DNA of 64,000 nt, taken from assembly GCA_964407105.1 (NCBI GenBank), contig CAYOUG010000001.1:8059-72058 (forward strand), given 5' to 3'. The notes under the pieces were generated by a model. The model ran no database searches and was not told the origin of the DNA. It worked only from the letters and a program-made list of their open reading frames with translations. Positions 4,045-55,296 of this stretch are shown here, in pieces (position 1 is the first letter of the stretch; each line of letters begins with the position of its first letter). The stretch is from an uncultured Candidatus Saccharibacteria bacterium (GTDB taxonomy: Bacteria > Patescibacteriota > Minisyncoccia > Phycocordibacterales > CALRHW01). Made by a program: the position numbers and the translations under genes.

Positions 4045-6264
4045 TTGAGTCACATGAAATTACTTATTGTCGAGTCGCCAGCAAAAGCAAAAACTATTTC
4101 AAAATATTTGGATGGTAAATTTACTGTGAAAGCATCAGTAGGTCATATTCGTGATTTACCAAAAAATAATAAAAAAGCAATCGACATCGAAGGTGGTTTT
4201 ATTCCTCACTATGAAATTTCAAAAGGTAAAGAGAATGTTGTGTCAGAAATAAAAGCGCTCGTAAAAAAAGCAGATGAAATTTATCTTGCTACCGACCCTG
4301 ATCGAGAAGGTGAGGCTATAGCTTGGCATATTGCGCAAGCCACGGGGATTAAAAATCCACAACGTGTCGTTTTTCACGAAATCACCAAAGATGCAGTAAC
4401 AGAAGCAATTCAACATCCGCGCGATATAGACGACAATTTAAAACAAGCTCAAGAAGCACGACGTGTGCTCGATCGTCTTGTGGGTTACGATCTTTCCGGC
4501 ATCATCTGGAAAAAAGTACGCTACGGTCTTTCTGCTGGACGCGTACAGTCGCCAGCTCTTCGTATTCTAATGGAAAGAGAACGAGAAATCCGCGCGTTCA
4601 TTTCTAATAAATTTTGGACAATCACCGCAGATCTTGAAAACACTGCAAAAAATAAACTCACATACACATGCGCGGACGAGCCAACAGATTTTTCTGTTGT
4701 AGAAAAAATTCTCTCTGCGGGAAAAGCTGGTGAATGGAAAATTACAGATATTAAAGAAACAGAAGTAAAACGTTCACCACGTGCACCGTTTACCACGTCC
4801 ACACTTCAACAAGCCGCAAGTTCACGACTTGGTTTTGCTCCATCAAAAACGATGGGGATTGCGCAAAAACTTTATGAAGCTGGACATATTTCATACATGC
4901 GCACAGACAGTACAACCCTTAGCTCACTTGCTATCGAACAAATTTCTGGGGTTATAGAAAAAAAGTTTGGAAAAAATTATCTCTCAGTGCGTGCATATAA
5001 AACAAAAAGTAAAAATGCACAGGAAGCACACGAAGCCGTACGACCAACACATTTTGGTAGTGAAAATGCTGGAACAACCGATGAACAAAAAAAACTTTAT
5101 CGACTTATTTGGCGTCGAGCAGTGGCTTCTCAAATGTCTGATGCAAATACGTTGCGTACACGCGTGACCACAAACATTGGTATAGCAGATGGTGTTGCGG
5201 GCGCTAAAACAGAGGCAATCCCCGATTTTCACGTCAATGGTTCTCGTATTCTTTTTGATGGGTGGTATGCCGCTGATCCCGCCGCTCGACAAGAAGATGT
5301 AGAACTCCCAAAAATGAGTATCGGTGAAGCATTAAAACTTATTGAAATAAAAACGGAAGAAAAAGAAACTCAACCACCAACACGTTATTCTGAAGCGGGT
5401 CTTGTAAAAGAGTTAGAAAAGCGCGGTATCGGTCGCCCATCTACTTACGCAAATATCATTAAAACAATTGTCGATCGTGGATACGTCCTCAAACAAAACA
5501 AAGCACTCGTACCCACAGACATTGGCGATGTTGTGAGCTCGTTTCTCGAAGACAATTTTATGAAATATATCAGTGATTCATTTACTGCTGAAATGGAAGA
5601 TAAGCTCGATGATATTGCAGAAGGAAAAGCTGAATATGAGAAAATTTTAAGCGCCTATTACAAACCATTAGCAAAAGAAGTTAAAGAAAAAGAAAAGCTC
5701 GCAAAAGCCACAGACCTCGGAAAAGCTCCAGCAGAATTTAAATGTCCTGTATGCAAAAGCGACATGATTATCAAACTCAGTAAGAGTGGAAGGTTTATGA
5801 GTTGTGAAAAATTTCCTGAATGTACTGGTGCTCGCACAATAGAAGGAAAAGAACTTGAGGGTCCAAAAGAAACAGGCGAAATGTGTCCTGAATGTAGTAC
5901 AGGTAAACTCATAGAACGCGACGGAAAGTTTGGACGTTTTATCGCATGCAACAATTATCCAAAATGTAAGTTTATTAAAAAAGACGCCGAGCTTGAAAAA
6001 CAAAATTCTACTGGTGTAACATGTCCTATCTGTAAAGATGGAATGATGACTGAACGCAGAGGACGTTTTGGACTTTTTTATAGTTGTAGCAATTATCCAA
6101 AATGTAAGCACGCCATAAAAGCAAAACCGACAGGAAATATTTGTGGCTACATGCGCGAAAACGGCCCGTGTCCTGCGCTAATGATGGAAGGTACGAAAAC
6201 AATTCCCGAGCGATGTTCAGATAAACTGTGTCCAAATCATAATCCGCATAAGTTGGGGAAATAA
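4045..6264 (+). CDS. topA: DNA topoisomerase I with C-terminal zinc-ribbon repeats
   Basis: 739 aa; TOPRIM N-terminus (MKLLIVESPAKAKTISKYL...GHIRDLP) and three C4 zinc-finger repeats (CPVC...C..C, CPEC, CPIC). Confidence 0.95.
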   Translation: MSHMKLLIVESPAKAKTISKYLDGKFTVKASVGHIRDLPKNNKKAIDIEGGFIPHYEISKGKENVVSEIKALVKKADEIYLATDPDREGEAIAWHIAQATGIKNPQRVVFHEITKDAVTEAIQHPRDIDDNLKQAQEARRVLDRLVGYDLSGIIWKKVRYGLSAGRVQSPALRILMEREREIRAFISNKFWTITADLENTAKNKLTYTCADEPTDFSVVEKILSAGKAGEWKITDIKETEVKRSPRAPFTTSTLQQAASSRLGFAPSKTMGIAQKLYEAGHISYMRTDSTTLSSLAIEQISGVIEKKFGKNYLSVRAYKTKSKNAQEAHEAVRPTHFGSENAGTTDEQKKLYRLIWRRAVASQMSDANTLRTRVTTNIGIADGVAGAKTEAIPDFHVNGSRILFDGWYAADPAARQEDVELPKMSIGEALKLIEIKTEEKETQPPTRYSEAGLVKELEKRGIGRPSTYANIIKTIVDRGYVLKQNKALVPTDIGDVVSSFLEDNFMKYISDSFTAEMEDKLDDIAEGKAEYEKILSAYYKPLAKEVKEKEKLAKATDLGKAPAEFKCPVCKSDMIIKLSKSGRFMSCEKFPECTGARTIEGKELEGPKETGEMCPECSTGKLIERDGKFGRFIACNNYPKCKFIKKDAELEKQNSTGVTCPICKDGMMTERRGRFGLFYSCSNYPKCKHAIKAKPTGNICGYMRENGPCPALMMEGTKTIPERCSDKLCPNHNPHKLGK

Positions 6265-6309
6265 AAGCACAGAACATATCCGTCTGTTCTTTTATTTCTC
6301 AATTCATTA

Positions 6310-6417
6310 AAACAATAACACTGTGTCTCGAAAACCACGCATAAAAGCCTGCTGGCTTTTTGCTACGCTCGGCCCGTCGGCCTGCGCGATGCTTTTCTCG
6401 ACACAGTGTTATTGTTT
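6310..6417. repeat. nested-hairpin intergenic repeat element, family 2, copy A
   Basis: 26-bp inverted arms (aaaacaataacactgtgtctcgaaaa / ttttctcgacacagtgttattgtttt) flank a GC-rich core ...gcctgctggctttttgctacgctcggcccgtcggcctgcgcgatgc. The core is near-identical to copy B at 11549-11652. Lies between the convergent topA and parB. Confidence 0.7.
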
Positions 6418-6424
6418 TACAAAT

Positions 6425-7480
6425 CTACACACTAAAATTTTTGATTGAATACAGCTCCTCCTCACTCTCCTGCTTTTCTGTTTTTGAGCGATCGTCAGCA
6501 AGATCTGATGTGAGAATTGGTTCTGGCGTTGAGGTTTCTTGCGATACTACATTTTGCCCCATTACCTCATCTGCATTTATAGATAAAGGTGTGGATGTAT
6601 TTTTCCCAAGTGTCTCAATATGTTTATCAAGCATCGCTGTAGCACCGCGAGATTTTTGCGATTCAAGCATATCTAAAATCGTGCGTAAGTCATCGTTTGA
6701 AAAGAAATCAATAGAAAGCTTTCCCCCATTTTCTTTTCGTTCAATAGACACGCGGGTGCCAAGCGTTTCAGAAAGTTTTTCTTCAAGTTCCACAAGCTCC
6801 GGGTCATGCATGAGCTCTTTCTTACGCACTTTATCAAAAGCAATTTTTCGAGAAATTGCTTCAGCTTCGCGTACTGTAAGTTTTTTGTAAACAATTTCTT
6901 TAAAAAGAGTATTTTGTTCTTCTGGTCTATCAACAAGCATCATGAGCGGACGCGTATGACCTTCAGAAATTTTTCCTGCACCGAGTGCATCAAGAATTTC
7001 CGATGGCAAAGAAAGAATACGGAGCGTGTTACTTACATACTCACGACTTTTACCAACCTTCGCAGCAATTTCGTTGTGCTTAAATTTAAATTCAATAGCA
7101 AGTCGCTCAAACGCTCGCGCACGATCAACAGGATTCAAGTCTTCGCGTTGAATATTTTCTATAATCGCGAGCTCAAGCTTCATAAGGTCGCTGTCATCAC
7201 CAGTTTTAATTAGCACCGGCACCTGTGTAAGACCAGCAAGCTTTGATGCACGCAAACGACGTTCACCGGCAATAATTTCATATTCCACCGCAAGTCCACC
7301 GTCTTCTTTTGGAACCTCTTTACGAGTAACGACAAGCGCCTGAAGTACACCGTATTGGCGAATAGAATCAGCGAGACTTTGGAGTTGCGCCTGATCAAAT
7401 TCGCGCCGTGGTTGAAACGGATTTGGTTTTATTTTATCTACATCCACCCAGAAAACTGAATCGTTGTAATACTGTGACAT
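6425..7480 (-). CDS. parB: chromosome partitioning protein ParB/Spo0J
   Basis: 351 aa; ParB box (VLQALVV...EIIAGERRLRASKLAGL) and HTH. No adjacent parA. Confidence 0.88.
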   Translation of the reverse strand: MSQYYNDSVFWVDVDKIKPNPFQPRREFDQAQLQSLADSIRQYGVLQALVVTRKEVPKEDGGLAVEYEIIAGERRLRASKLAGLTQVPVLIKTGDDSDLMKLELAIIENIQREDLNPVDRARAFERLAIEFKFKHNEIAAKVGKSREYVSNTLRILSLPSEILDALGAGKISEGHTRPLMMLVDRPEEQNTLFKEIVYKKLTVREAEAISRKIAFDKVRKKELMHDPELVELEEKLSETLGTRVSIERKENGGKLSIDFFSNDDLRTILDMLESQKSRGATAMLDKHIETLGKNTSTPLSINADEVMGQNVVSQETSTPEPILTSDLADDRSKTEKQESEEELYSIKNFSV

Positions 7481-7534
7481 GGTGGTTTTATTTTAACATT
7501 GATTTATGCCTAAAATCTAGTAGACTCAGTGCAT

Positions 7535-7616
7535 GCCGTGGTGGCGGAATTGGTAGACGCACACGACTCAAAATCGTGCGGAGCAATCCATGAGAGTTCG
7601 ATTCTCTCCCGCGGCA
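7535..7616 (+). tRNA. tRNA-Leu (anticodon CAA)
   Basis: Cloverleaf: acceptor GCCGTGG/CCGCGGC, anticodon stem cacga/tcgtg with loop CTCAAAA, long variable arm, T-loop TTCGATT. Confidence 0.85.
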
Positions 7617-7663
7617 CAGTTTTTAATCTTGGTTTTTAGTTTTTTGAAAAACACCCACAAACC

Positions 7664-7692
7664 TATTGACATTTACATATTTATGTAATACA
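7664..7692 (+). promoter_or_regulatory. sigma70-like promoter (TTGACA-17-TACAAT) for the repeat-protein gene
   Basis: ttgacatttacatatttatgtaatacaat read directly from the sequence. Confidence 0.4.
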
Positions 7693-7710
7693 ATACTTTT
7701 ACATATGAAT

Positions 7711-8349
7711 GGTATGAAATTTTTCATGTTAATAATCTTGATAGCCATCGTGGCAATTCCACGTATTTCCCTCTCGGAATTTCCGGCTAATTCGCCATAT
7801 CCGGGTGAATTTTATGCTCTGTGTCGTGATGGAATTGATAACGATGGCGACGGAATGATTGATGACGGTCTTACTGTGCCCGGCGTACCCGCCGACCCAG
7901 ATTGTCCTAAATGTTACGATGGTATAGACAATGAGCCAGATGGATTTATAGACTTCGAAGATTCAGATTGTCCACAAAGTGGAGAGGTTCTTGGTGCTAA
8001 TAATTCAAACAATGGAAATAATTTAAATGGCAACAGCAATTTAGATGGTACAAGTAACTTGGACGGAAATAGCAACCTTGATGGTAATAGTAATTTAGAT
8101 GGAAATAGTAATCTAAAAGGAAATAGCAACTTAAAGGGCAACAACAATCTTAATGGTTCAAGTAATTTAAATGGGAATAGTAATCTTTCTAGTAACAACA
8201 ATTTAAACGGCACAAGTAATCTTGGTGGCAATAGCAACTTAAATGGAAACAGTAATCTAAACGGAAATAGCAACCTTGATGGTAACAGTAATTTAGATGG
8301 AAATAGTTTTGGTGATGACTGTCATTGTCATTGTGGTTGTGACTGGTAA
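7711..8349 (+). CDS. secreted acidic protein: Cys/DxDxDG calcium-binding-like motifs, 17 tandem G-N-S-N-L-D/N/K hexapeptides, C-terminal CHCHCGC cluster
   Basis: Start at MKFFMLIILIAIVAIP (signal/TM). CRDGIDNDGDGMIDDG and CYDGIDNEPDGFIDFEDSDC motifs. The 18-bp DNA repeat at 8005-8310 encodes GNSNLD-type units. C-terminus is DDCHCHCGCDW. Confidence 0.6.
   Translation, partial: GMKFFMLIILIAIVAIPRISLSEFPANSPYPGEFYALCRDGIDNDGDGMIDDGLTVPGVPADPDCPKCYDGIDNEPDGFIDFEDSDCPQSGEVLGANNSNNGNNLNGNSNLDGTSNLDGNSNLDGNSNLDGNSNLKGNSNLKGNNNLNGSSNLNGNSNLSSNNNLNGTSNLGGNSNLNGNSNLNGNSNLDGNSNLDGNSFGDDCHCHCGCDW
8005..8310 (+). repeat. 18-bp tandem repeat (~17 units) encoding the hexapeptide GNSNL(D/N/K)
   Basis: Repeating ggNaaYagYaaYYTNgaY units are visible. 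The minus-strand ORF 7914..8273 is the mirror-image artefact of this repeat. Confidence 0.85.
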
Positions 8350-8358
8350 TGTGAGCTT

Positions 8359-9270
8359 ATGAATGCTCAAAAAAAACTTATTGTAATACTTGGACCAACA
8401 GCTTCTGGAAAAAGTTCACTTGCTGTTGAGATAGCTCGTGATCTAAAAAAAGACGAAATTAATGCAGAAATTATTTCTGCGGACTCACGACAGATATATA
8501 CAGGCCTTGATATTGGCACAGGAAAAATATCACACAAGGAGATGATGGGAATACCCCACCATCTCCTTGATGTTTGTAGTCCCAAAAAATGCAGATTTAC
8601 TGTGGCAGATTTTCAGCGCCGCGCGCATGCGGCTATCGCCGCAATGCATGCGCGCGGCGCAATCCCCATTCTCTGTGGCGGTACCGGCTTTTATATCCAA
8701 TCAATAGTAGACAACATTACTCTACCCGAAGTTCCACCCAACAAAAAACTTCGCGTAAAACTTGAGAAACAAAGCACTGAGAAACTTTTTGAAACTCTCA
8801 AAAAACTCGATTTGAAACGTGCTCGGGGAATTGATGCGTTCAACAGACCACGCCTCATTCGTGCAATTGAAATCGCAACAGCTCTTGGAAAAGTACCCGC
8901 TGTAAAATCGCGGCCACTGTATGATGTTTTGCAAATTGGAATTATGACAGATGAGAAAAAATTGCGAGCACGCATTCACGAACGCCTTTTTGCACGCATG
9001 AAAAAAGGCATGCTGACCGAAGCAAAAAAACTTCACGCCCGCGGACTTTCATACACACGCATGAATGAGCTTGGTTTGGAATACAAATACCTTGCCTTGT
9101 TTTTACAGAAAAAAATCTCACGCGCAGAAATGCTTAAAACACTTGAACAAGAAATCTGGCACTACGCAAAACGCCAAATGACGTGGTTTAAAAAGGATAC
9201 ACGCATTGCGTGGTTTCCTCTTTCAAAGAAGGTTACGATTAAAAAAGTGGTGCGAAATTTTTTGAAATAA
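8359..9270 (+). CDS. miaA: tRNA dimethylallyltransferase
   Basis: 303 aa; P-loop GPTASGKS followed by the IISADSRQIY motif. Confidence 0.9.
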   Translation: MNAQKKLIVILGPTASGKSSLAVEIARDLKKDEINAEIISADSRQIYTGLDIGTGKISHKEMMGIPHHLLDVCSPKKCRFTVADFQRRAHAAIAAMHARGAIPILCGGTGFYIQSIVDNITLPEVPPNKKLRVKLEKQSTEKLFETLKKLDLKRARGIDAFNRPRLIRAIEIATALGKVPAVKSRPLYDVLQIGIMTDEKKLRARIHERLFARMKKGMLTEAKKLHARGLSYTRMNELGLEYKYLALFLQKKISRAEMLKTLEQEIWHYAKRQMTWFKKDTRIAWFPLSKKVTIKKVVRNFLK

Positions 9271-9295
9271 ATAAAAAATAAACCTATCTTAAAAC

Positions 9296-9853
9296 TTATT
9301 TACGTCGAACAATAAGTATCGCTGAAAGTAGGATGTTTCCACATATCCAAGCTACAATCCAAGAAGAAGAAAGAAATGTGTAATACTCCACAGCAAACAG
9401 TGCCAAACAAAATCTTAAAGCATTGGTTACATAGAGCGAAAGTGTTTCTGAATATGGCTCATAATATGATTTGCGAACTGTTGGAATAAAAGCAAACATA
9501 TCAGCGAGAATAACTAAAATCATAGAGATCACAGGCTGGTCAACGATGAGCCAAAAAAATATTGCAACGAGAGATAAAACTGCCACTACCGTATCAGATC
9601 TTGTTATATCTTTCTTACCATTTTTAAAACTTAAAATAACGACCCCGATACACAAAAGTCCGGCAGATATTGTCACCAACACAGCGGGTCCAGCACCTCC
9701 CTTGATTTGTAGGGCAACAAGTAAGATCGTGAGTAGTCCCCACAATGACCAACTATAAATATGTGGGCGAGTTTTACCATTTAAAATATCACGATAGTAC
9801 GGGATATATGCCACAAAAGTTAGTACAGCAGCAGCAATGCCAATAATTTCTTT
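9296..9853 (-). CDS. integral membrane protein, PQ-loop/SemiSWEET-like repeats (ORF may extend to 9979)
   Basis: About 6-7 TM helices. LTFVAYIPYYRDILNGKTRPHIYSWSLWG resembles the PQ-loop motif (LPQ...K.T...S...W). Start chosen at MKEIIGIAAA; upstream in-frame M residues exist. Confidence 0.35.
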   Translation of the reverse strand, partial: KEIIGIAAAVLTFVAYIPYYRDILNGKTRPHIYSWSLWGLLTILLVALQIKGGAGPAVLVTISAGLLCIGVVILSFKNGKKDITRSDTVVAVLSLVAIFFWLIVDQPVISMILVILADMFAFIPTVRKSYYEPYSETLSLYVTNALRFCLALFAVEYYTFLSSSWIVAWICGNILLSAILIVRRK

Positions 9854-9975
9854 CATTCTTTTTTGCGGGCCCACTCCGACTCGAACGGAGAACTGCGCTT
9901 TTGGAGAGCGATGTTTTACCATTGAAACTATAGGCCCAATGTGGTTATGGTAGCAGAAAAAACTGGTTTTTAAAA

Positions 9976-10032
9976 GCAAAAAACGCTTCCGAACGAGTTA
10001 GCGAAGCGCTTTAGAGAGGAAGCGTTTTTTGC
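9976..10032. repeat. hairpin element family 1 copy (conserved core, co-varying arms); bidirectional terminator-like
   Basis: Arms gcaaaaaacgcttcc/ggaagcgttttttgc flank the core gaacgagttagcgaagcgctttagagag. T-runs lie on both sides. Lies downstream of rpmG. Confidence 0.7.
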
Positions 10033-10039
10033 GTTTTTA

Positions 10040-10198
10040 TTACTTCTTTGCTTCTTTATGAGGAGTGCGTTTCTTACACCAAGAACAATACTTTTTGAGC
10101 TCTATTTTTCGCTCAACAAGCTTCTTGTTTTTACCAGTTTGGTAGTTTGCTCGTTTGCAAGTTTTACAAACAAGTTTGATTAATCGATCTTGTGACAT
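10040..10198 (-). CDS. rpmG: 50S ribosomal protein L33
   Basis: MSQDRLIKLVCKTCKRANYQTGKNKKLVERKIELKKYCSWCKKRTPHKE shows the L33 Cys pattern. The ORF-track start lies upstream; start taken at MSQD. Confidence 0.8.
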   Translation of the reverse strand: MSQDRLIKLVCKTCKRANYQTGKNKKLVERKIELKKYCSWCKKRTPHKEAKK

Positions 10199-10277
10199 AG
10201 GCACTACTATACAAAAAAGCCCTAAAAAAAGCAATATTATGCCTAAGAGCTAACCTTATGCTATCTTGGGCACTTCT

Positions 10278-11420
10278 CTAAAGATAAATACGCTTAATGA
10301 GGGGATTAAGGCGAGTCACAAACTCATAGGGTGAATTGTGGGCCAAATCAGCGAGCTCTTCGGCTCGTATAATTTCCCCACCGTCGGTTCCGATAAGCGT
10401 TACTTCATCACCCACAGAAACATCAGGAATATCAGTAGTGTCGATGATAATCATATCCATAGAAACACGACCGAGGACTCGCGCGCGTGCTCCACGCACA
10501 AGGACACATCCCACGCTCGAAAGCGCGCGCGCATACCCATGCCAATATCCGATCGGACAAATAGCAATAGTACTATCGCGCGAAAAAGTTTCTGTAAAAT
10601 CATAACCCACCGAATCCCCCTTTGGCACCTTTTTTACTTCACCAATAATTGTTCGCCAAGACAAAATTGGTTTTAATTCTACTTTTTGTGAAGAAAACAT
10701 TTTTGTTTCTTTTGATGGCCAAATGCCATAAAGAGCAATACCGATACGCACCATATCAAAATGAGCTTGAGGAAAAATAAGTGTTCCACCACTTGCTGAT
10801 GTGTGTTTTATCGTTTTAAAACCAGCTTGATCAAAAGCACTTACCCACACACCAAAAGAAACCACCTGAGCAAGAGTTTTTTCTGGAACAGACGGATCTT
10901 TTGCTGCCGCAAAATGCGTAAAAAGACCTTCCACCAAAACTTTATTTTCAAGCACTTTGAGCATATCAATCACCTCTTGTATTTGAAATTCCTGAAAACC
11001 CTGTCTGTGCATGCCGGTGTCTACCTTTATATGAATTTTTAGTTTTTTTGAAAAATTAATCGAAGCAATAACTCCAAGTAATTCAAATGTGGAAACGGTA
11101 ATGCTAATATCAAGATCCGCTGCGCGTGGAAGCATTTCTGGAAGTGTATATCCAAGCACAAGTATTGGCTTTGTTACACCTTCTTCACGAAGCGCAAGGG
11201 CTTCCATAATAGAATCAACGCCAATCCAATCGACGCCACTTTTTTCCATCTCTTTTGCAACACCCACAAAGCCGTGCCCATAAGCATTAGACTTCACCAC
11301 CGACATTATTTTGCAGTTTTTTGAAAGATTTTTTTTAAGTGTTAAATAATTATGTTCAAGTGCCTTGGTATCTATTTCAATCCATGTGCGCAAACCTTTT
11401 CTCTCGAGATCTTTTTTCAT
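10278..11420 (-). CDS. alr: alanine racemase
   Basis: Start taken at MKKDLERKGLRTWIEID; PLP-lysine region VVKSNAYGHG. The ORF-track N-terminal extension (MLRSARRPARCFS...) runs through tRNA-Tyr and repeat copy B, so it is rejected. Confidence 0.85.
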   Translation of the reverse strand: MKKDLERKGLRTWIEIDTKALEHNYLTLKKNLSKNCKIMSVVKSNAYGHGFVGVAKEMEKSGVDWIGVDSIMEALALREEGVTKPILVLGYTLPEMLPRAADLDISITVSTFELLGVIASINFSKKLKIHIKVDTGMHRQGFQEFQIQEVIDMLKVLENKVLVEGLFTHFAAAKDPSVPEKTLAQVVSFGVWVSAFDQAGFKTIKHTSASGGTLIFPQAHFDMVRIGIALYGIWPSKETKMFSSQKVELKPILSWRTIIGEVKKVPKGDSVGYDFTETFSRDSTIAICPIGYWHGYARALSSVGCVLVRGARARVLGRVSMDMIIIDTTDIPDVSVGDEVTLIGTDGGEIIRAEELADLAHNSPYEFVTRLNPLIKRIYL

Positions 11421-11421
11421 C

Positions 11422-11508
11422 TGGTGCGTAGGGAAGGATTCGAACCTTCGTAGCCCAATGGGCGACAGATTTACAGTCTGTTGCGATTGACCGCTCCGCC
11501 ACCTACGC
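11422..11508 (-). tRNA. tRNA-Tyr (anticodon GTA), class II long variable arm, encoded CCA
   Basis: Reverse complement folds with acceptor GCGTAGG/CCTACGC, anticodon loop CTGTAAA, long extra arm, T-loop TTCGAAT and a CCA end. Confidence 0.85.
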
Positions 11509-11548
11509 AATACCACGAATTCTAAGCCAAAATTGACCTTAAGTAAAG

Positions 11549-11652
11549 CTGTAAAATAAGTGTTTGAAAAGCATCGCGCAGGCCGACGGGCCGAGCGTAG
11601 CAAAATCGCAGCAGCGATTTATGCGTGGTTTTCAAACACTTATTTTATAGCT
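11549..11652. repeat. nested-hairpin intergenic repeat element, family 2, copy B (inverted relative to A)
   Basis: About 27-bp arms (taaagctgtaaaataagtgtttgaaaa / ttttcaaacacttattttatagcttta). Core is the reverse complement of ccacgcataaatcgctgctgcgattttgctacgctcggcccgtcggcctgcgcgatgc. Lies downstream of gyrB. Confidence 0.7.
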
Positions 11653-11655
11653 TTA

Positions 11656-13737
11656 CTAGATATCAATCGTCGCTTTCTTTGCATTCGACTGAATAAAAGA
11701 TTTTCGAGACGGCACATCAGTACCCATGAGAATATCAAAAACTTTGTCAGCGGCCACACCATCTTCAACGGCTACTTGTTTTAAAATACGATTGCCCGGA
11801 TCCATAGTGGTCTCCCAAAGTTCTTCTGAGTTCATTTCTCCAAGACCTTTGTAACGCTGAATAGAAATTTTATTTTTTCGAGGCACTTTTCCTTTTGTTT
11901 CAGAAGTAGTATTTTCGTTACCCGCTTCTCCACCACCCTCTTCTTCAAAATCTCCACTGTCACCTTGAGAATCTTCCATTATTTCTTCTGCGGAAACATC
12001 TTTTCCAATTTTTTCGATCTTTTCAGCATCAGTGTAGGCATACATTACCTCCTTCCCTTTTTTAATTTTATAGAGTGGTGGCTGAGCAATATATACAAAT
12101 CCCCCGTCAATAAGCGGTCGGAAAAAACGATATAAAAGTGTCAAAATAAGTGTACGAATATGCGCACCGTCCACGTCGGCATCGGTTGCAAGAATAATTT
12201 TGTGATAGCGGAGCTTGGTAATATCAAAAGTGTCGCCAATAGCCGTACCGAGCGCGACCACCAAATTTTTAATTTGCTCTGATTCAAGCATACGATCAAG
12301 ACGCGCACGCTCAATATTTAAAATTTTTCCTCGAAGTGGTAGCACCGCTTGTGTGCGTCTATCGCGACCAGATTTTGCTGTACCGCCCGCAGAATCTCCC
12401 TCTACAATAAAAAGCTCCGACTCACTTGCGTCTTTCGTCTGACAATCTGCAAGTTTTCCGGGAAGTGTCATGCCTTCAAGTGCGCCCTTTCGAAGCACAC
12501 TGTCTTTTGCTGCTTTTGCAGCCTTGCGAGCTTTGAGCGCAAGCACAACCTTATTGATCATTGCACGTGCATCTTCAGGATTTTCTTCTAGAAAATAATT
12601 GAATGATTCACTAAAAATAGTTTCCACCGCGCCACGAGCTTCTACTGTACCGAGTTTTGCTTTTGTTTGACCTTCAAATTGAATTTCTCGAAGTTTGATA
12701 GACACCACAGCGGTCAGACCTTCAAGAGCATCTTCTCCAGTAAAATTATCCTCGTTTTCCTTAACCATATTATTTTTGCGTGCATAGGCATTAAGTGTAC
12801 GAGTGAGAGCGGTTTTAAAACCAGTAATATGTGTTCCACCTTCTGAGTTATAAATATTGTTTGCGAAAGCCAAAATTCTGCTTGAAATATCATCTACATA
12901 CTGCAAAGAAACTTCCACCGACTCATATTCATTTGTTGGCTTTTCAACATAAAAAATATTTTTGTGAATTGGCTTAAGGGTTTGATTGTAAAACTTTACC
13001 ATAGAAAGAATACCTCCTTCAAAATAAAAAGTTTGTGACGGTGCATCTACCCCAAGCTCACTGAAATAAAATATTTCTCCAGGAATTTCTTTTGTATAAT
13101 TTCTTGCGTCAATAACAGAAATACGAAGACCTTTTACAAGATATGCTTGCTGACGCATGTGTCCCACAATACGATTGAAATCGAAAGTTTGTTTACCAAA
13201 AATTTCTTCATCTGGTTCAAAGGAAATTATTGTTCCGCTGTGTTTTGTGGCACTCACACGCTTTACCACTGCTTTTCTTTTTCCTCGACTATACTCCTGA
13301 ACATAATAACCACCGTCTTTATGAATCTCTGCTTTTACATAAACAGAAAGTGCGTTTACTACAGAAGCACCCACACCATGAAGACCTCCCGACACCTTGT
13401 ATCCTTCACCACCAAATTTTCCTCCAGCGTGAAGTGTTGTCATAATTGTTTCAAGTGCAGAAACTTTTGTTTGTTTATGAATATCAACAGGAATACCTCG
13501 GCCGTTGTCTGTTACACGTACGCGATTATTTGGCAAAAGAACAATTTCAATATTATCGGCAAAGTCACCCATCGCTTCGTCGCGGGAGTTATCAAAAATT
13601 TCAGTAACGAGGTGATGGAAACCATCTGGACCGGTAGTACCAATGTACATACCCGGACGTTTTCGTACTGGTTCCAAACCCTCGAGCACCGAGATTGCTT
13701 CTGCGGTATATCCTCCTTTTTTTTCTTCTTTTGCCAT
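11656..13737 (-). CDS. gyrB: DNA gyrase subunit B
   Basis: 693 aa; GHKL ATPase, TOPRIM and C-terminal domains; EGDSAGG motif. Confidence 0.95.
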   Translation of the reverse strand: MAKEEKKGGYTAEAISVLEGLEPVRKRPGMYIGTTGPDGFHHLVTEIFDNSRDEAMGDFADNIEIVLLPNNRVRVTDNGRGIPVDIHKQTKVSALETIMTTLHAGGKFGGEGYKVSGGLHGVGASVVNALSVYVKAEIHKDGGYYVQEYSRGKRKAVVKRVSATKHSGTIISFEPDEEIFGKQTFDFNRIVGHMRQQAYLVKGLRISVIDARNYTKEIPGEIFYFSELGVDAPSQTFYFEGGILSMVKFYNQTLKPIHKNIFYVEKPTNEYESVEVSLQYVDDISSRILAFANNIYNSEGGTHITGFKTALTRTLNAYARKNNMVKENEDNFTGEDALEGLTAVVSIKLREIQFEGQTKAKLGTVEARGAVETIFSESFNYFLEENPEDARAMINKVVLALKARKAAKAAKDSVLRKGALEGMTLPGKLADCQTKDASESELFIVEGDSAGGTAKSGRDRRTQAVLPLRGKILNIERARLDRMLESEQIKNLVVALGTAIGDTFDITKLRYHKIILATDADVDGAHIRTLILTLLYRFFRPLIDGGFVYIAQPPLYKIKKGKEVMYAYTDAEKIEKIGKDVSAEEIMEDSQGDSGDFEEEGGGEAGNENTTSETKGKVPRKNKISIQRYKGLGEMNSEELWETTMDPGNRILKQVAVEDGVAADKVFDILMGTDVPSRKSFIQSNAKKATIDI

Positions 13738-14220: not shown

Positions 14221-16203
14221 CTATCTCACTCGCCAACCAGATTGTGCATTCAATATATTTGTCACCTTTTTCATTACTTCGTTTATTTCTTGGTCATCAA
14301 GTGTGCGCTCATCAGATTGAAAAACTAAATTATAAGCAAAAGAAGTTTTCTTTGTACCGTCTTCAAAATTTTTATTAAAAACATCAAAAAGTGAAATTGA
14401 TGTCAAAAGCTTCCCCGCTTCACGAGAGATAAGATCTTCCACAAAATCTGCTCCCACTTCATTTGGTACAAATACAGCGATATCTCTCAACGCAAAAGGA
14501 TACTGTGAAATCTTTTTGTATTTTATTTGTTGATTTACAAAATGAGTATTATCAATATTTTTTTCTGGTAATAATTCAACAATTTCATCAAGATCAAATT
14601 CGAGTGTGTTGGTGGATTTGTTAGCTTTTATTTTTCCTTTAAATCCGATCTGTTCTGCTATAGTATGAGAAATATCTTCTAGCATTTTCAAAATAGTTGC
14701 GTCAGCGTTTTTTATTTTTTTAACAGAAGCAATTGAAATACCCAAAGAAAGATTTTCTCCTTTTGACGTAAATACTTTTCCTATTTCAAAAATTTTTACA
14801 AAGTCATACAGTTTGAGAAGCGGAGCATTATACAAATTTAGATCCAAACTTTGCAACAAACCTTCGGCAAGATTTTCTCGCAAAAACTTTTTATCTGATG
14901 CGATTGGATTTTGTAATTCTCGCTCGCCAGAATTTCTAAATGAATACGTATAAACTTCTGAAAAACCATTCTCTATAAGAATTGAACGGATAACATCGGT
15001 ATAAACAACGGTTTTATTTGGTGTTACATTCGCGAAAGCACCGATAGTATCTTTTGGTTCAAGCGGTGGCACATTGAAAAATCCATACACGCGCCCCACC
15101 TCTTCAATCAGATCCTCTTTTATAACAAGATCTAAACGTTCGTAAGGCACCGTTACTAAAAGTGTGTCGTCTAACATTTCTAACACACAGCCTAGATGTT
15201 TTAAAATTTGAATAATTTTTTTGTGAGTAATTGCGAAACCAAGTACGTTTTCTATATCTTTAAAAGTAAATTTGATGGTGTGTTGGGGTTTTTGATCAAC
15301 TCGCACATCTACAAGTGCTTCAATAGATCCTTCCGCAATATTCACAATGAGTTCACACACATCTTGAAGTGCTTCCACAGTAATTTCTGGAGTAATACCG
15401 TTTTCAAAACGCACAGAAGCATCAGTGCGTAAGCCAAGAAATTTTGAGGTGGTGCGAATTTTTATAGAATCAAAATTTGCAGATTCAAGAAGAATGTTTG
15501 TGGTGTTTTCATCAATAGAAGCAACGGTGCCACCCTTTATACCAGCAATTCCAAGAATTTTATTGTCTTTGCAATTTTTGTCGGTAATAACTAGTGTGTC
15601 CTGAGGAAGTTCATAAGTTTTTCCATCAAGAGCGTCCATTTTTTCACCTTCTTTTGAATTGCGGACTAAAATTGCATAAGAATTATTTTTTTCAATCAAT
15701 TTTGCAAGATCAAATGCGTGGAGTGGTTGACCAAGCGCAAACATTACATAATTTGTTGCATCAACAATATTGTTAATTGATTTTTGACCAATAGCTTCAA
15801 TTTTTTCTACAAGCCACGCTGGCGATTCTTTTACAGACACACCACGAATAATAGCTGAGCTGTATCGAGTACAAAGATTTTTGTCAGCAATGTCCACGGT
15901 CAGCGCTTCACTTTTAAAATCAGCGCTCTCCTTTCGTGGTGTCACCTTTAATTTTCGTCCGAGAAGAGTTCCGATTTCTCTTGCAATACCGCGATGTGAA
16001 AGACAATCATGTGCGCGATTTGGTAATATTTTTATATCAAAAACAAAATCGCTATGAATGCGCCGCGCGCCGTCGATGGCAGGCAAAACTTCATCTACCG
16101 ACTCCACCTCAAAAGCATACATAGTGAAAAGTTCTGCGAGTTCGCGCGGCGCAGGCAGTTTTTCATCAAAATATGTTTGTAGCCAGTTGTATGAAATTTT
16201 CAT
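14221..16203 (-). CDS. pheT: phenylalanyl-tRNA synthetase beta subunit (short form)
   Basis: 660 aa; B3/B4 and B5 domains; overlaps the upstream small gene by 4 nt. Confidence 0.93.
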   Translation of the reverse strand: MKISYNWLQTYFDEKLPAPRELAELFTMYAFEVESVDEVLPAIDGARRIHSDFVFDIKILPNRAHDCLSHRGIAREIGTLLGRKLKVTPRKESADFKSEALTVDIADKNLCTRYSSAIIRGVSVKESPAWLVEKIEAIGQKSINNIVDATNYVMFALGQPLHAFDLAKLIEKNNSYAILVRNSKEGEKMDALDGKTYELPQDTLVITDKNCKDNKILGIAGIKGGTVASIDENTTNILLESANFDSIKIRTTSKFLGLRTDASVRFENGITPEITVEALQDVCELIVNIAEGSIEALVDVRVDQKPQHTIKFTFKDIENVLGFAITHKKIIQILKHLGCVLEMLDDTLLVTVPYERLDLVIKEDLIEEVGRVYGFFNVPPLEPKDTIGAFANVTPNKTVVYTDVIRSILIENGFSEVYTYSFRNSGERELQNPIASDKKFLRENLAEGLLQSLDLNLYNAPLLKLYDFVKIFEIGKVFTSKGENLSLGISIASVKKIKNADATILKMLEDISHTIAEQIGFKGKIKANKSTNTLEFDLDEIVELLPEKNIDNTHFVNQQIKYKKISQYPFALRDIAVFVPNEVGADFVEDLISREAGKLLTSISLFDVFNKNFEDGTKKTSFAYNLVFQSDERTLDDQEINEVMKKVTNILNAQSGWRVR

Positions 16204-21484: not shown

Positions 21485-22468
21485 TTAATCTTCGTCGTCT
21501 TCTGCGTTTCCAACAACACCTCCCTCACTGTATTTTTTACACGCCTCAATAATTTGATCCAAGTTTCCAAGAAAAATCTGATTGATATTGTGCCAAGATT
21601 GTTTTACGCGATGATCGGTGATACGGTCTTGTAAAATGTTGTAGGTACGAATTTTTTCTGAACGATCAGCTGTTCCTATTTGTCCTATTCGTTCTTTAGA
21701 AAGTGTTTTAACCGCCTCTTCTTCTGCCAACATTTCAAGTTTTGCCGCTAAAATACCCATCGCTTTTTCACGATTTTTTAACTGACTTCGTTCGGCAGTA
21801 GAACGCACATCTATACCAGATGGTTTGTGAATAATACGAACCGCAGTTTCCACCTTGTTCACGTTTTGTCCTCCAGCACCACCCGAACGAGAAAATTCTA
21901 TTTCTAAATCAGCTGGGTTTATTTCAATATGAACTTTTTTACGCATTGGCATAATAGCCACGGACGCTGTAGATGTATGCACACGACCCATTTTCTCTGT
22001 AGCTGGTACACGTTGAATACGATGCACACCAGTTTCAAAACGTAAATCTTTATATACATCTTGACCACGAATTTCAAAAGACGCATCTTTGTATCCACCC
22101 ACAGGACTTCTTGATTCATCTAATTTTCTAAAACCCCACCCACGTTTTATTGAATATTTTTCATACATTTCCGCAAGCTCTTCAGCAAAAAGTGCCGCTT
22201 CATCTCCACCTGCTCCAGCACGTATTTCAAGTACAATTTCGTTTGGAAATTCATCTTCTACTTCATCAACTTTAAGTATTTCATCCATTTGCGCAATCAA
22301 TGCAACTTTTTGATTTTCCAAATTTTTTAGTTCTTCATTTGCAAGTTCCGCCACAGAAGAGTCTTGAGCCAACATTGCTTTCACATTTTCCTCTTCACGC
22401 AAAAGAGACTGATAATGATCAGCCAAATAACTTGTTTTTACATTGTCTTTATATTTTTGAAGGTCCAT
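21485..22468 (-). CDS. prfA: peptide chain release factor 1
   Basis: GGQ motif plus PAT (the P-x-T tripeptide specific to RF1); start at MDLQKYKD. Confidence 0.9.
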   Translation of the reverse strand: MDLQKYKDNVKTSYLADHYQSLLREEENVKAMLAQDSSVAELANEELKNLENQKVALIAQMDEILKVDEVEDEFPNEIVLEIRAGAGGDEAALFAEELAEMYEKYSIKRGWGFRKLDESRSPVGGYKDASFEIRGQDVYKDLRFETGVHRIQRVPATEKMGRVHTSTASVAIMPMRKKVHIEINPADLEIEFSRSGGAGGQNVNKVETAVRIIHKPSGIDVRSTAERSQLKNREKAMGILAAKLEMLAEEEAVKTLSKERIGQIGTADRSEKIRTYNILQDRITDHRVKQSWHNINQIFLGNLDQIIEACKKYSEGGVVGNAEDDED

Positions 22469-22539
22469 GGTGTTTAGTTTAACAGATTTAGTGTAGCAGA
22501 AATTTAATCTGTACACAGAAAATGGTCAAGAATAGGGCT

Positions 22540-22602
22540 AAAAGAAAAAGGACTTCCGAGCGGGTTAGCGTAGCGCTTTAGCGAGGAAGTCCTTTTTCTT
22601 TT
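22540..22602. repeat. hairpin element family 1 copy
   Basis: Arms aaaagaaaaaggacttcc/ggaagtcctttttctttt flank the core gagcgggttagcgtagcgctttagcgag. Lies downstream of rpmE with T-runs on both sides. Confidence 0.7.
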
Positions 22603-22606
22603 GCCA

Positions 22607-22867
22607 TTACTCTTCTTTCTTCTCTTTTGAATCCGAAACCTTTTTAGCTTTCTTAGGAAGAGCCTCTGATTTTGAACGTCGATTTTTAAACTTTTCTACA
22701 CGTCCTGCAGCATCAAGAACCTTTTCATTACCTGTATAAAATGGATGACATGCGCTACAAATTTCCACCGTGATTTTCTCTTTGGTAGATCCAATATTAA
22801 ATTTATTTCCACATGCACACGTCACGCTTGCCTTTGGAAAATACATAGGATGTAACTCTTTTTTCAT
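22607..22867 (-). CDS. rpmE: 50S ribosomal protein L31 with a Lys-rich C-terminal extension
   Basis: [46 protein letters not shown], then [15 protein letters not shown]. Confidence 0.85.
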
Positions 22868-22944
22868 GGGCACAACTATATCAATAAAGGTGTTTTTTTG
22901 CAAGAAAAAGCTCGCAAAAAACACCACTTGGCTCGTGATTACTT

Positions 22945-30572: not shown

Positions 30573-30582
30573 TACACACAAA

Positions 30583-30615
30583 TAAAAAACCTCGAGAATA
30601 ATCGGGGTTTTTTAT
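30583..30615. terminator. bidirectional hairpin terminator between convergent pfkB kinase and transketolase
   Basis: aaaaacctcgagaataatcggggtttttt: stem with A-run and T-run flanks. Confidence 0.5.
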
Positions 30616-31604
30616 TTTCTTTTCAAAACCTTATCAACCGCCTCAGTGATTGCTTTTTCTCCCATACCATAGTGTTCAATAAGTTCTGCTGGCGTTCCTG
30701 ACTGACCAAATTTATCTTTTACTCCAACAAATTCAATCGGTACAGGTTTGTGTTGAGCAAGACATTCTGTCACAGCGCTTCCCATTCCTCCCGCTATTTG
30801 ATGCTCTTCGACTGTTACAATTGCGCCAGTTTCTTGCGCAAGATCGATGAGCGCTTTTTCATCGAGAGGTTTTATCGTCGATAAATTTAAAACTTTCACA
30901 CCAACACCTTTTTCGGTGAAATTTTTTGCAACCATTAATGCCTTGTGCACAAGCGCGCCCGTAGCCACAATTCCAACCTGAGCAAATCCATTTTCTGGAG
31001 CAAAAAATATCTGCGCTTTTCCAATTTCAAATGGAGTATCGATGGTGGTTATCACTGGAGTTTTATCTCGAATCAAACGAATATATACGGGGGTGTTTGT
31101 TTGAGCTGCGGCAAGTGTCGCCTTTTTTGCTTCTATATGATCGCACGGAGAAAGCACTACCAGATTTGGTATCACACGTGTAATCGCCAAGTCTTCTATC
31201 GCTTGATGTGTGCCGCCGTCTGGTCCAACAGAAATACCCGCGTGTGATCCAGCGATTTTTACAGGTCGATCGTTATAGCAAATTGTCGTGCGAATTTGCT
31301 CCCAATTTCTTCCGGGAGAAAACATTGCATAGGAAGTAATAAAAGGAATTTTTCCCATCGCCGCCATGCCGGATGCTACCGACGCAAGATTTTGCTCGGC
31401 CACCCCCATTTCAATAAAACGCTCCGGAAACTTTTGCGCAAAAAGATGTGTTTGTGTTGATTCTGTAAGATCAGCGCAAAGTGCCACTACTCGTTCATCA
31501 GTAATACCCGCAGTAAGCAAACCCTCACCATACCCTTTTCGTATCGGCACTTGTTCGACATCTGCGTCAAATACTTTTGGGTTTAAATGTAAATTATTAT
31601 TCAT
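30612..31604 (-). CDS. transketolase, C-terminal subunit (split transketolase)
   Basis: 330 aa; pyrimidine-binding and C-terminal domains; overlaps the N-terminal subunit gene by 8 nt. Confidence 0.9.
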   Translation of the reverse strand: MNNNLHLNPKVFDADVEQVPIRKGYGEGLLTAGITDERVVALCADLTESTQTHLFAQKFPERFIEMGVAEQNLASVASGMAAMGKIPFITSYAMFSPGRNWEQIRTTICYNDRPVKIAGSHAGISVGPDGGTHQAIEDLAITRVIPNLVVLSPCDHIEAKKATLAAAQTNTPVYIRLIRDKTPVITTIDTPFEIGKAQIFFAPENGFAQVGIVATGALVHKALMVAKNFTEKGVGVKVLNLSTIKPLDEKALIDLAQETGAIVTVEEHQIAGGMGSAVTECLAQHKPVPIEFVGVKDKFGQSGTPAELIEHYGMGEKAITEAVDKVLKRK

Positions 31605-39052: not shown

Positions 39053-39170
39053 GAAATTCGTTTTAATAGTATGTTCGGAGGGGGTCTCGAGCGCGACGGC
39101 GCGAGAGCTTCAGGATTTTTTAAGCTTCAAAAAATCCGTACCCGGAGAACATACTATTAAAACGAATTTT
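39053..39170. repeat. nested-hairpin intergenic element, family 2-like divergent copy D
   Basis: About 27-bp arms (aaattcgttttaatagtatgttcgg / ccggagaacatactattaaaacgaattt). GC-rich core contains ctcgagcgcgacggcgcgagag, related to the cgccgtcgcgcctgcgcgag core of copy C. Lies downstream of lemA. Confidence 0.6.
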
Positions 39171-41526: not shown

Positions 41527-41931
41527 TTATTTATTAATAATCGCCAAAATACTTTCTTCTTTTAAAATATAAAATTCTTTGCTATCGAGTGTAACGTCAT
41601 CAAAACCGTATTTTGAAAAAAGTACAATATCACCAACCTTAACCTTTACTGGTATAAGTTTGCCGTCGTTATAATGTCCTGGACCCACGGCCACCACCTC
41701 CCCTTGCTCAGGTTTTTCTTTTTGCACTGTTTCAGGAATGATAATACCGAAACTATTTGGCTTCGCTATTTCTTCCGCACTAAAAGGCCGCACAAGCACA
41801 CGGTCGCCAAGTGGCATGATGGGGTGTTTGAAAGATGGTGCAACAGGCTTTGTAACAGGTCGAGCTGCTGGTCGTGCGGGGGCTTTTTTCACACTCTTTT
41901 TCAAAATTTTCTGTTTCTTTTTTATAGCCAT
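41527..41931 (-). CDS. groES: co-chaperonin GroES with a Lys/Pro-rich N-terminal extension
   Basis: GroES core PLGDRVLVRP...GIIIPE...GEVVAVGPG...VKVGDIVLF. The start is ambiguous between MAIKKKQK and MPLGDRV. Confidence 0.75.
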   Translation of the reverse strand: MAIKKKQKILKKSVKKAPARPAARPVTKPVAPSFKHPIMPLGDRVLVRPFSAEEIAKPNSFGIIIPETVQKEKPEQGEVVAVGPGHYNDGKLIPVKVKVGDIVLFSKYGFDDVTLDSKEFYILKEESILAIINK

Positions 41932-42072
41932 AGATATATCTTTAGGGTAATTATTAATTAGGGTAAATACAATATTATCTGAAGACGATTTGGAGTCAAT
42001 ATTTAGAGATAAAATCTGTTTGTTATCGTGGGGGGGCGCAATGTAATAAATACTTTTAAACATGTTGTGTTA

Positions 42073-42149
42073 CTGGAGCGGTATGAAATATGCTTTTGAG
42101 CGAGTTAGCAAAGCGCTTTAGCGAGAAAGCATATTTCACACCGCTCCAG
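42073..42149. repeat. hairpin element family 1 copy (longest arms)
   Basis: Arms ctggagcggtatgaaatatgcttt/aaagcatatttcacaccgctccag flank the core tgagcgagttagcaaagcgctttagcgag. Lies between the divergent groES and secG. Confidence 0.7.
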
Positions 42150-42173
42150 CCAATCAGATTTGCAATATTTCTC

Positions 42174-42431
42174 ATGGTTTGTATAATACTTGGAATGAGT
42201 ATTGTCGCTTCTATATTACCGTATACACAGGTTGTGTTGTCTATAGTTCTAATCGCCCTGATTCTCTTGCAGAGATCAGAAGCTGGCCTTGGTGGTGCTT
42301 TTGGTGGTGGCGACGGCTTTAGCTCTGGATTTCACACAAAACGAGGCCTAGAAAAGACCTTATTCATAGGAACAATTATTGTTGCTCTACTTTTTGTTAC
42401 CTCGACATTCTTTTCACTCTTTGTACGATAA
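42174..42431 (+). CDS. secG: preprotein translocase subunit SecG
   Basis: Start at MVCIILGMSIV; LLQRSEAGLGGAFGGG signature; two TM helices. The ORF-track N-terminus is a translation of the hairpin repeat and is rejected. Confidence 0.75.
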   Translation: MVCIILGMSIVASILPYTQVVLSIVLIALILLQRSEAGLGGAFGGGDGFSSGFHTKRGLEKTLFIGTIIVALLFVTSTFFSLFVR

Positions 42432-55064: not shown

Positions 55065-55242
55065 TTGCAAAATTGGTGCTGCCGATCAGGGACTCTCGGC
55101 TACCGCCGCGGGTGCTTTTCGGTCTCGCATGCGAGTACGCACACTCGACAACGAAAAGCCTTTCGAGTCCCTGACGAAAGTGCCGCGGGGCACTTTCTAT
55201 CGCCAGCACTCCGCTTCGCTACGTGCTGCCGATCAGGGACTC
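55065..55242. repeat. 20-bp direct repeats (gtgctgccgatcagggactc) duplicating the 3' end of tRNA-Gln, flanking ~140 bp of hairpin-rich DNA (att-like scar)
   Basis: Identical 20-mers at 55065-55084 and 55223-55242. The second is the 3' end of the tRNA gene. The interval has inverted repeats (cagggactc/gagtccctg; gaaagtgcc/ggcactttc). Confidence 0.6.
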
Positions 55243-55296
55243 GAACCCCAATTAACCGCTCCAGAGGCGGTCGTCCTACCATTAGACGAATCGGCA
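55226..55296 (-). tRNA. tRNA-Gln (anticodon CTG), U1-A72
   Basis: Reverse complement TGCCGATTCGTCTAATGGTAGGACGACCGCCTCTGGAGCGGTTAATTGGGGTTCGAGTCCCTGATCGGCAG. Anticodon loop CTCTGGA; a T-stem with two G-U pairs lowers confidence. Confidence 0.65.

Follow-up and report, generated by a model that had tools for sequence, protein, structure and literature searches.

A hairpin family with a conserved 27-nt centre and locus-specific arms in a Candidatus Saccharibacteria genome, a candidate palindromic terminator cassette

In REPINs the inverted REP 16-mer ends are conserved and the spacer between them is less conserved (Bertels & Rainey 2011, PMC3116915). Here we describe a hairpin family with the inverse arrangement, found in a stretch of 64,000 nucleotides (the window) from an uncultured Candidatus Saccharibacteria bacterium (GenBank assembly GCA_964407105.1, contig CAYOUG010000001.1, positions 8,059 to 72,058). 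The three window copies (copy 1, 9972-10036; copy 2, 22540-22602; copy 3, 42073-42149) carry a nearly identical 27-nt centre on locus-specific complementary arms, and across the family the centre has an identity of 0.91, in contrast to 0.46-0.66 for the arms. Like the REP and REPIN sequences, which are mobilised by RAYT proteins, the members are short extragenic repeats able to form a long hairpin in single-stranded DNA or mRNA, they show compensatory changes, and they lie at the ends of transcription units. A restriction to one lineage, largely vertical inheritance and the expectation of an asymmetric, strand-specific recognition element are further likenesses. Apart from the inverted distribution of conservation, the window family differs from REPINs in its low copy number and in the lack of a RAYT among the 68 open reading frames (ORFs) of the window.

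Miniature inverted-repeat transposable elements (MITEs) and the Correia/NEMIS, RPE, ERIC and BOX elements (reviewed in PMC3184786) are, like the window family, non-coding, bounded by inverted repeats, intergenic, variable in presence between genomes and able to supply terminators or promoters. However, in MITEs the terminal inverted repeats are conserved and accompanied by target-site duplications, whereas the window family has locus-specific termini and its three window copies show no duplication. A likeness to the Rickettsia palindromic elements is that a copy in a related genome (locus L012; related loci are designated by L-numbers throughout) provides the C-terminus and the stop codon of a gene. 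Integron attC sites also form hairpins at gene 3' ends, their arms differ from locus to locus and their recognition requires the folded single strand, but in attC the base (R''/R') is conserved and the apex varies, which is the reverse of the window family, and the window contains neither an integrase nor a cassette array. Cyanobacterial SDR (small dispersed repeats) of 21-27 nt were reportedly put forward by Elhai et al. in 2008 as the smallest mobile elements. They share with the window family a conserved unit of about 27 nt, a structure supported by compensatory changes, nesting in other repeats or palindromes and confinement to one clade; compared by description only, they differ in sequence and hosts and are not described as capping long locus-specific stems at terminators. 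Yeast mitochondrial GC clusters are short mobile GC-rich hairpins in AT-rich spacers, with several coexisting families. Unlike the window family, they are organellar and their GC-rich palindrome is the conserved stem, whereas the window family is moderately GC-rich and has AT-rich, locus-specific arms.

The family is of the small palindromic repeat or terminator-cassette kind and is not a member of any named family. Because the conserved centre and free ends fit the logic of neither REPINs, MITEs nor attC sites, an undescribed mechanism of recognition or propagation is suggested. A search of one literature library for such elements in the candidate phyla radiation (CPR)/Patescibacteria returned no relevant report, and as far as the sequence comparisons reach the family is previously undescribed and lineage-restricted. 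The reading we favour, with about even confidence, is that of a lineage-restricted, REP- or MITE-like palindromic cassette supplying terminator hairpins, the asymmetric centre of which would be recognised at the DNA level and the arms of which would be kept complementary by compensated change.

Anatomy and conservation of the hairpin family

In copy 1 the arms 9976-9990 and 10018-10032 are perfectly complementary over 15 bp and, with one mismatch, over 19 bp (9972-9990 and 10018-10036); the A-run and the T-run are part of the arms, and the centre is GAACGAGTTAGCGAAGCGCTTTAGAGA (9991-10017). Copy 2 has perfect 18-bp arms (22540-22557 and 22585-22602) around the centre GAGCGGGTTAGCGTAGCGCTTTAGCGA (22558-22584). 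The 24-bp arms of copy 3 (42073-42096 and 42126-42149) contain one mismatch (13+10) and lack flanking T-runs; its centre GAGCGAGTTAGCAAAGCGCTTTAGCGA (42098-42124) is closed by T42097.G42125, whereas those of copies 1 and 2 are closed by C-G. The core lies on the + strand in all three copies, which score 81.8, 80.1 and 72.2 bits, respectively, with the family covariance model. The first-pass annotation had proposed three hairpins with a near-identical core at these positions, and this was borne out: the 18-mer GTTAGCRWAGCGCTTTAG has 3 matches in the window at ≤3 mismatches, versus 0.06 expected from shuffles. Its 29-nt unpaired core had to be shortened, since an exhaustive perfect-stem scan gave exactly 27 unpaired nucleotides in every genuine copy. 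The perfect arms of 13, 18 and 24 bp that it had listed are correct for copy 2 and require the adjustments given above for copies 1 and 3. A cassette measures about 55-77 bp in total. The folding energies of the window copies are far below those of shuffles on both strands (z from -4.4 to -9.6; the G+C content of the window is 38.9%).

The family set comprises 16 copies from about five genome bins in all, 3 from the window and 13 from related Paceibacterota-type metagenome-assembled genomes (MAGs), and was collected with a strict discovery pattern that favours intact centres. Every genuine copy has the same anatomy, namely an A-rich left arm, a YYYC stem top, the centre (consensus GARCGRGTTAGCRWAGCGCTTTAGNGA), a GRRR stem top and a T-rich right arm, where Y and R are pyrimidine and purine. 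Averaged over all pairs of the 12 non-orthologous copies, identity amounts to 0.91 in the centre, 0.62 in the stem top, 0.46 in the middle of the arms and 0.66 in the distal A/T-run parts. The earlier description of the arms as unrelated between copies is therefore largely right, except that the top 3-4 pairs of the stem always have Y on the 5' side and R on the 3' side; the three pairs beneath the closing C-G are altered by compensated transitions only. In a 55-column alignment, 94.9% of the cells are standard pairs and 12 pairs are altered on both sides, which none of 500 shuffles matched, and shifting the 3' partners along the alignment cuts the pairing to 41-54%. These values establish the conserved centre on covarying arms, as originally proposed, as a true family. 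The arms of every element are unique within the 299 kb of sequence compared.

In three of the four orthologous pairs the centre matches at 26 or 27 of 27 positions, the fourth being the decayed copy of locus L018 (18/27). Between copy 1 and its L006 orthologue a 4-nt indel affects both arms alike, and a compensated T-A to C-G change in the arms separates the copies designated L004a and L005. Identical centre variants also occur at non-orthologous loci (copy 2, L004a and L005; copy 1 and L011). The spacer adjoining copy 1 aligns poorly with that of its orthologue; because the centre is conserved far above the arms and this flank aligns poorly, some sequence-specific recognition of the centre is likely.

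The centre is itself structured and not floppy. Read on the core-sense strand, the stem extends through a tandem G.A/A.G, the pair 3/25, C4-G24 and a mini-hairpin. Every copy has G.A at 1/27 and A.G at 2/26 except the decayed L018, in which 2/26 is A.A; a tandem G.A mismatch in the 5'-YGAR-3' context is stable in both RNA and DNA. The pair 3/25 covaries (GC in 6 copies, AU in 3, GU in 1 and AA in 6), C4-G24 is nearly invariant, and the tip is a 4-bp mini-hairpin, AGCG-WAG-CGCT. The centre also contains the direct repeat TTAGCGNAG-CGCT-TTAGNGAGG, as read in copies 1-3. In the arms, 8 mismatches are of the G.U type and 7 of the A.C type, so neither strand is favoured as RNA.

When one genome per GTDB species was scanned for exact matches to GTTAGCNNAGCGCTTTAGNGAG, no more than three bins held genuine copies, namely two TPA MAGs labelled Saccharibacteria (SRP286056_co1_301 and SRP135725_co2_60) and Candidatus Paceibacterota STL-PAT9; one obvious chance match lay in Marinobacter. 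These bins are relatives of the source organism, since L006, from SRP286056_co1_301, is syntenic with window positions 5566-13597 at 64-81% identity. Searches for the exact core in the JGI metagenome and viral collections produced chance matches only, in GC-rich or coding DNA and without a hairpin. The diverged orthologue of copy 2 in L018/L019 was reached through PrfA homologues; since its centre matches at only 18 of 27 positions, the strict pattern under-samples the family. The covariance model R1, built from the 16 copies, found no further or more divergent member in the 299 kb of related loci: all copies scored 62.9-83 bits except L018 (47.6), and anything else, either a reverse-strand match to a known copy (up to 27 bits) or a weak short stretch, scored ≤27 bits. 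Neither of the two findings that the first description had named as refuting it arose. Every additional genuine copy keeps the hairpin context, and no Rfam family matches: a scan of the window at Rfam gathering thresholds detected tRNAs only, and in an E-value scan of 9900-10100 the best match, SpF10_sRNA, reached 24.8 bits against a gathering score of 60, the others being generic hairpin matches except for a truncated tRNA-Trp.

The small number of copies in the window, taken by itself, might suggest chance similarity or an assembly artefact. This is refuted by the excess of matches over shuffles, by the gap in covariance model scores between the copies and everything else, and by the presence of the same elements in independent assemblies (NCBI MAGs, the Logan assembly L017 and JGI contigs).

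Position, orientation and transcription

As the first-pass annotation had noted, copies 1 and 2 lie directly downstream of ribosomal protein genes. They begin 3 and 2 nt past the stop codons and carry A- and T-runs. The rpmG gene (L33; 10040-10234, - strand) ends 3 nt from the base of the copy 1 hairpin, downstream of which lies tRNA-Trp (9865-9937) on the same strand. The rpmE gene (L31; 22607-22867, - strand, with the start of ORF 22607-22927 taken at MKKELHP) ends 2 nt from copy 2, and a predicted prfA promoter (TTGACC-17-TAAATT; 22501-22529, - strand), 11 nt from the base of copy 2, and prfA itself (RF-1; 21485-22468, - strand) lie downstream. At both sites a stable hairpin is followed by a T/U-run on both strands. 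Copy 3 was correctly placed between the divergent groES and secG and, more exactly, lies between their predicted divergent promoters, all promoters given here being consensus matches only. The groES promoter (TTGACT-16-TAATAT; 41972-41999, - strand) has copy 3 upstream of it, outside the transcript, and the -35 hexamer of the secG promoter (TTTGCA-17-TATAAT, 10/12 matches; 42159-42187, + strand) starts 10 nt past the copy. The L001 copy has a similar setting, away from 3' ends and with predicted divergent promoters on either side, a -35-like hexamer being contributed by one arm of the copy. Because of this location, neither neighbour should transcribe copy 3 or the L001 copy.

The mechanical ORFs at this site, 42090-42431 for secG and 41527-42063 for groES, are both overcalled. 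Translation of secG probably begins at the ATG at 42197 (SecG has 76-97 aa in relatives), and the long N-terminal extension of the GroES ORF covers the predicted promoter of groES itself. A coding reading of the centre (the MLLSELAKRF... ORF at 42090) was rejected as spurious, with the predicted secG promoter lying inside that ORF.

Most copies of the family lie 0-12 nt past a stop codon, with A-runs and T-runs at the stem. Those in the MAGs, where gene directions were taken from ORF reading and not from annotation, follow 3' ends read as rplL, rplB, pth, a helicase and a response regulator, or sit between convergent genes. Canonical intrinsic terminators have a loop of 3-8 nt and no loop conservation between terminators. 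Copies 1 and 2 resemble bidirectional intrinsic terminators in that they come right after a stop codon, have an A-run upstream and a T-run downstream, and are followed by the predicted promoter of the next gene; they differ in that a conserved, structured 27-nt centre caps the stem, and copy 3 and the L001 copy are off 3' ends. The original proposal of bidirectional terminators at copies 1 and 2 agrees with their position and A-/T-runs; copy 3 has no T-run. A consensus terminator scan did not call the outer hairpins of the window copies because the loop exceeds 8 nt. Plain terminators are also present in the window (30580-30617, 63201-63235 and 6258-6298). A plain terminator reading of the family suits the position and flanks of most copies but leaves unexplained the 91% conserved 27-nt centre, its transcription-independent orientation and the two copies in promoter spacers.

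The centre is sense to the adjoining transcript at 2 loci and antisense at 5, including rpmG and rpmE. This bears directly on the idea of a host cis-regulatory RNA hairpin, in which the centre would be an RNA-binding site on terminator stems of a regulon enriched in ribosomal protein genes and would control 3'-end formation, stability or processing. The strong conservation of the centre relative to arms and flanks, the covariation of pair 3/25 and the G.U or A-U alternatives at 6/22 and 7/21, which pair only on the core-sense strand, agree with such a function, as does the presence of 4 of about 10 gene-adjacent copies after ribosomal protein genes (rpmG, rpmE, rplL and rplB). However, in 5 of the 7 co-oriented cases the centre is antisense to the adjoining mRNA, two copies are outside any predicted transcript, and no consistent promoter was found for a core-sense transcript. 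Moreover, the same sites in relatives hold unrelated cassettes, a plain terminator or nothing, and the L018 copy stays after rpmE despite changes at 9 of 27 centre positions. We regard this explanation as unlikely. Of the first suggestion that an RNA- or protein-binding motif is displayed on a hairpin, recognition of the centre remains likely, whereas an RNA motif on mRNA 3' ends is disfavoured by orientation, divergent promoters, arm mismatches and turnover.

Orientation independent of transcription is what would be expected if the centre, as cruciform or duplex, were a host site bound by a nucleoid, topology, insulator or recombination factor, in the manner of IHF- or gyrase-binding BIME/REP sequences. 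Such a DNA-level site would also suit the two copies that occupy untranscribed promoter spacers just upstream of -35 hexamers, the perfect Watson-Crick complementarity of the arms with mismatches lacking strand bias, the direct repeat in the centre and the stability of the 5'-YGAR-3' tandem G.A in DNA. Difficulties are that there are only three, irregularly spaced copies per 64 kb, that close relatives show turnover and unrelated cassette families at the sites, that three relatives lack copy 3, and that no candidate binding protein was identified. We consider a host DNA-level site improbable. Among known sites compared by eye, CIRCE, the Cheo/LexA box, parS, dif and sigma-54 promoters do not fit.

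Turnover at orthologous sites and the palindromic cassette

From one relative to another, an orthologous site may keep the cassette, lack it or hold a different one, and three further cassette families with unrelated GC-rich centres (A, B and C, described below) were also encountered. The spacer between rpmE and prfA was compared in relatives with 69-81% PrfA identity. In the window it contains the 27-nt-centre family, which recurs in decayed form in L018/L019. Other relatives have family B (L025), family A (L023) or a plain short-loop terminator (L024) there, and the L022 spacer, 12 nt long, is empty. The decayed copy has changes at 9 of 27 centre positions, imperfect arms and a folding z of -1.25, and it still lies directly after rpmE. 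The spacer between rpmG and tRNA-Trp contains the 27-nt-centre family in the window and in L006/L025, and family C in L023. L027, L028 and L029 (82-85% GroEL identity) lack copy 3 together with its arms. Family B has a filled allele (L004) that can be set against an empty one (L005); their flanks are about 85% identical, and the empty allele lacks the arms. Presence/absence polymorphism with element-free sites is thus observed, the direction of gain or loss being given by parsimony only. Gain, loss and swapping as a unit, like those of a miniature mobile element, seem to occur; the first reading had left such behaviour of a mobile or repeat element out of account, and the turnover at orthologous sites brings it in.

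Several details of these comparisons concern single loci. In a co-assembled MAG, the left arm of the copy in L012 (1-90, reverse strand) is part of an amine-oxidase-like ORF whose stop codon, TAG, falls within the 27-nt centre, and in L007 (1700-1825) a second haplotype has lost that gene by an ATTTT microhomology deletion ending at the hairpin base. L007 and L012 were initially taken as two loci sharing arms, which was rejected since they are one locus with the intervening gene deleted. Several contigs of this MAG end inside elements of the family. The notion that one arm is the original flank and the other its inverted copy was examined by comparing copy 3 with L027, L028 and L029 and was abandoned, the spacers being too diverged and the left, right and neither scores indistinguishable. 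A contig with a 99%-identical GroEL (L030) ends inside groES before the site of copy 3.

According to the palindromic-cassette reading, the element would at most loci act as a bidirectional Rho-independent terminator or as a 3' stabilising hairpin of the upstream gene, its A/T-run arms giving a U-tract on either strand, and would have spread as selfish or semi-domesticated DNA in the fashion of REPs or MITEs. The recognised part would be the asymmetric centre; as its orientation does not follow transcription, recognition would probably act on DNA, in the form of a single-stranded hairpin or a cruciform. The arms may be held as perfect Watson-Crick complements by selection on both transcripts or by templated correction within the hairpin. 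Three alternative routes are conceivable: a module of about 35 nt could enter the tips of existing hairpins, the whole hairpin could move, or the arms could be built locally after insertion.

Several points count against this reading. The 68 ORFs of the 64-kb window include no transposase, integrase, reverse-transcriptase or HUH domain (RAYT included), no target-site duplication surrounds copies 1-3 as read directly, and no two loci have the same arms. All orthologous pairs keep the orientation of the centre, with 26-27 of 27 positions in three of the four, which fits vertical inheritance under host selection too. Absence in relatives could reflect precise loss of the palindrome rather than gain. 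The terminator role is predicted from position and A/T-runs, and the terminator scan makes no call. Finally, there are only 16 copies in a sample skewed to conserved centres.

Alternatively, ordinary intrinsic terminators may have had their apical loops homogenised by ectopic gene conversion among similar A/T-run hairpins, with a functionless centre and no transposition machinery. The terminator-like placement with A/T-runs, the lack of a transposase in the window and the identical centre variants at the non-orthologous loci named above are in line with this, and palindromic A-rich arms could pair either way, giving mixed orientation. However, neither copy 3 nor the L001 copy occupies a terminator position, the copy 3 arms have no A/T-runs and the relatives have no pre-existing hairpin at the copy 3 site. 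In addition, without the conserved stem top just 2-3 variable bp precede the A-run, too little for a terminator stem, and the intactness of the centre over genus-level divergence is left unexplained. We consider gene conversion an unlikely account.

A bolder proposal, to which we likewise attach a low probability, is that the family represents a new class of very small mobile module of about 35 nt, consisting of the 27-nt asymmetric centre and a 4-bp Y/R stem. In reduced CPR genomes, such a module would insert into AT-rich spacers and would then gain or build locus-specific complementary arms by templated inverted copying (intra-strand template switching), yielding portable bidirectional terminators; the unrelated GC-rich families A, B and C would arise by the same route and compete for the same sites. 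Consistent with this, arms are unique to each locus, absent from empty alleles and compensated even for a 4-nt indel, and perfect GC-rich palindromes arose within coding sequence of the window with its length unchanged (miaA).

The genomes of CPR/Patescibacteria are tiny, tightly packed and usually called repeat-poor. In related genomes of this group at least four cassette families replace one another at the same sites. If the cassettes are terminators, part of the transcription-punctuation layer would come from semi-mobile DNA, which, if true, bears on operon prediction and on models of CPR genome reduction. The family may also be useful as a marker of strain-level variation and of assembly breaks.

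Other cassette families and palindromic patches

Family A is represented in the window at 6308-6419, 11540-11657 and 59047-59171, and in relatives at L002 2383-2499, L011 4083-4185 and L023 about 2630-2700. It has a GC-rich centre of about 52-80 nt within perfect locus-specific arms of 19-27 bp and occurs in both orientations. Two mini-hairpins within the centre covary: the first reads AAAGCC-TGCT-GGCTTT, AATCCC-TGCT-GGGATT or AATCGC-TGCA-GCGATT, and the second GGCGC-CGTC-GCGCC or GGCC-CGTC-GGCC. Family B (window 39054-39169; L004 7637-7748; L025 5495-5606) has a GC-rich centre of about 58-82 nt (...GTCKCGAG...TTCAGGAYTTTTTAAGCTTCAAAAARTCCGTACCC...) within unique arms of 15-27 bp. Neither family A nor family B matched Rfam, at gathering thresholds or then at permissive E-values, and the family A core had no match among viral contigs. 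Family C (L023 11654-11785), which occupies the site of copy 1, combines perfect 24-bp arms, starting at the stop codon of rpmG, with a GC-rich centre of 84 nt that contains two internal hairpins.

All cassette hairpins of the window, except copy 3 and the element at 55077-55245, lie 0-12 nt past the stop codon of a - strand gene (parB, rpmG, gyrB, rpmE, lemA or prfB). Together with four plain terminators, which they outnumber about 2 to 1, the cassette hairpins mark the ends of transcription units; about eight of the roughly twelve strong hairpins at such ends in the window are of the cassette type, each with a conserved GC-containing centre on locus-specific arms, and belong to at least four families.

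The element at 55077-55245 adjoins tRNA-Gln (55225-55296, - strand). The 20-nt 3' end of this tRNA gene (gtgctgccgatcagggactc) is directly repeated at 55077-55096 and 55223-55242, and a 13-nt inverted copy, ttcgagtccctga, lies at 55162-55174 between two GC-rich centres. Because the tRNA 3' end is repeated both directly and in inverted form, the hairpin arms are copies of the adjoining tRNA gene. They may be a clue to the origin of arms in general, or a remnant of an integration site. Elsewhere in the window, the sole transposase-like trace is the ORF at 60791-61573, which runs into tRNA-Met and contains a generic HTH_23 only, with no catalytic domain; against transposase N-terminal domains it scored ≤21 bits, the cutoffs being ≥100.

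The sequence GCGCCGCGCG forms two inverted pairs within coding sequence, at 8616-8660 in miaA and at 16060-16152 in pheT (5 matches in total versus 0.84 expected). The miaA pair makes perfect 15-bp palindrome arms, in frame. MiaA has the same length as in two relatives (FQRRAHAAIAAMHARG versus FKKLADKKIAEIFARG), and because the protein length is unchanged, this palindromic GC-rich patch was made by substitution and not by insertion.

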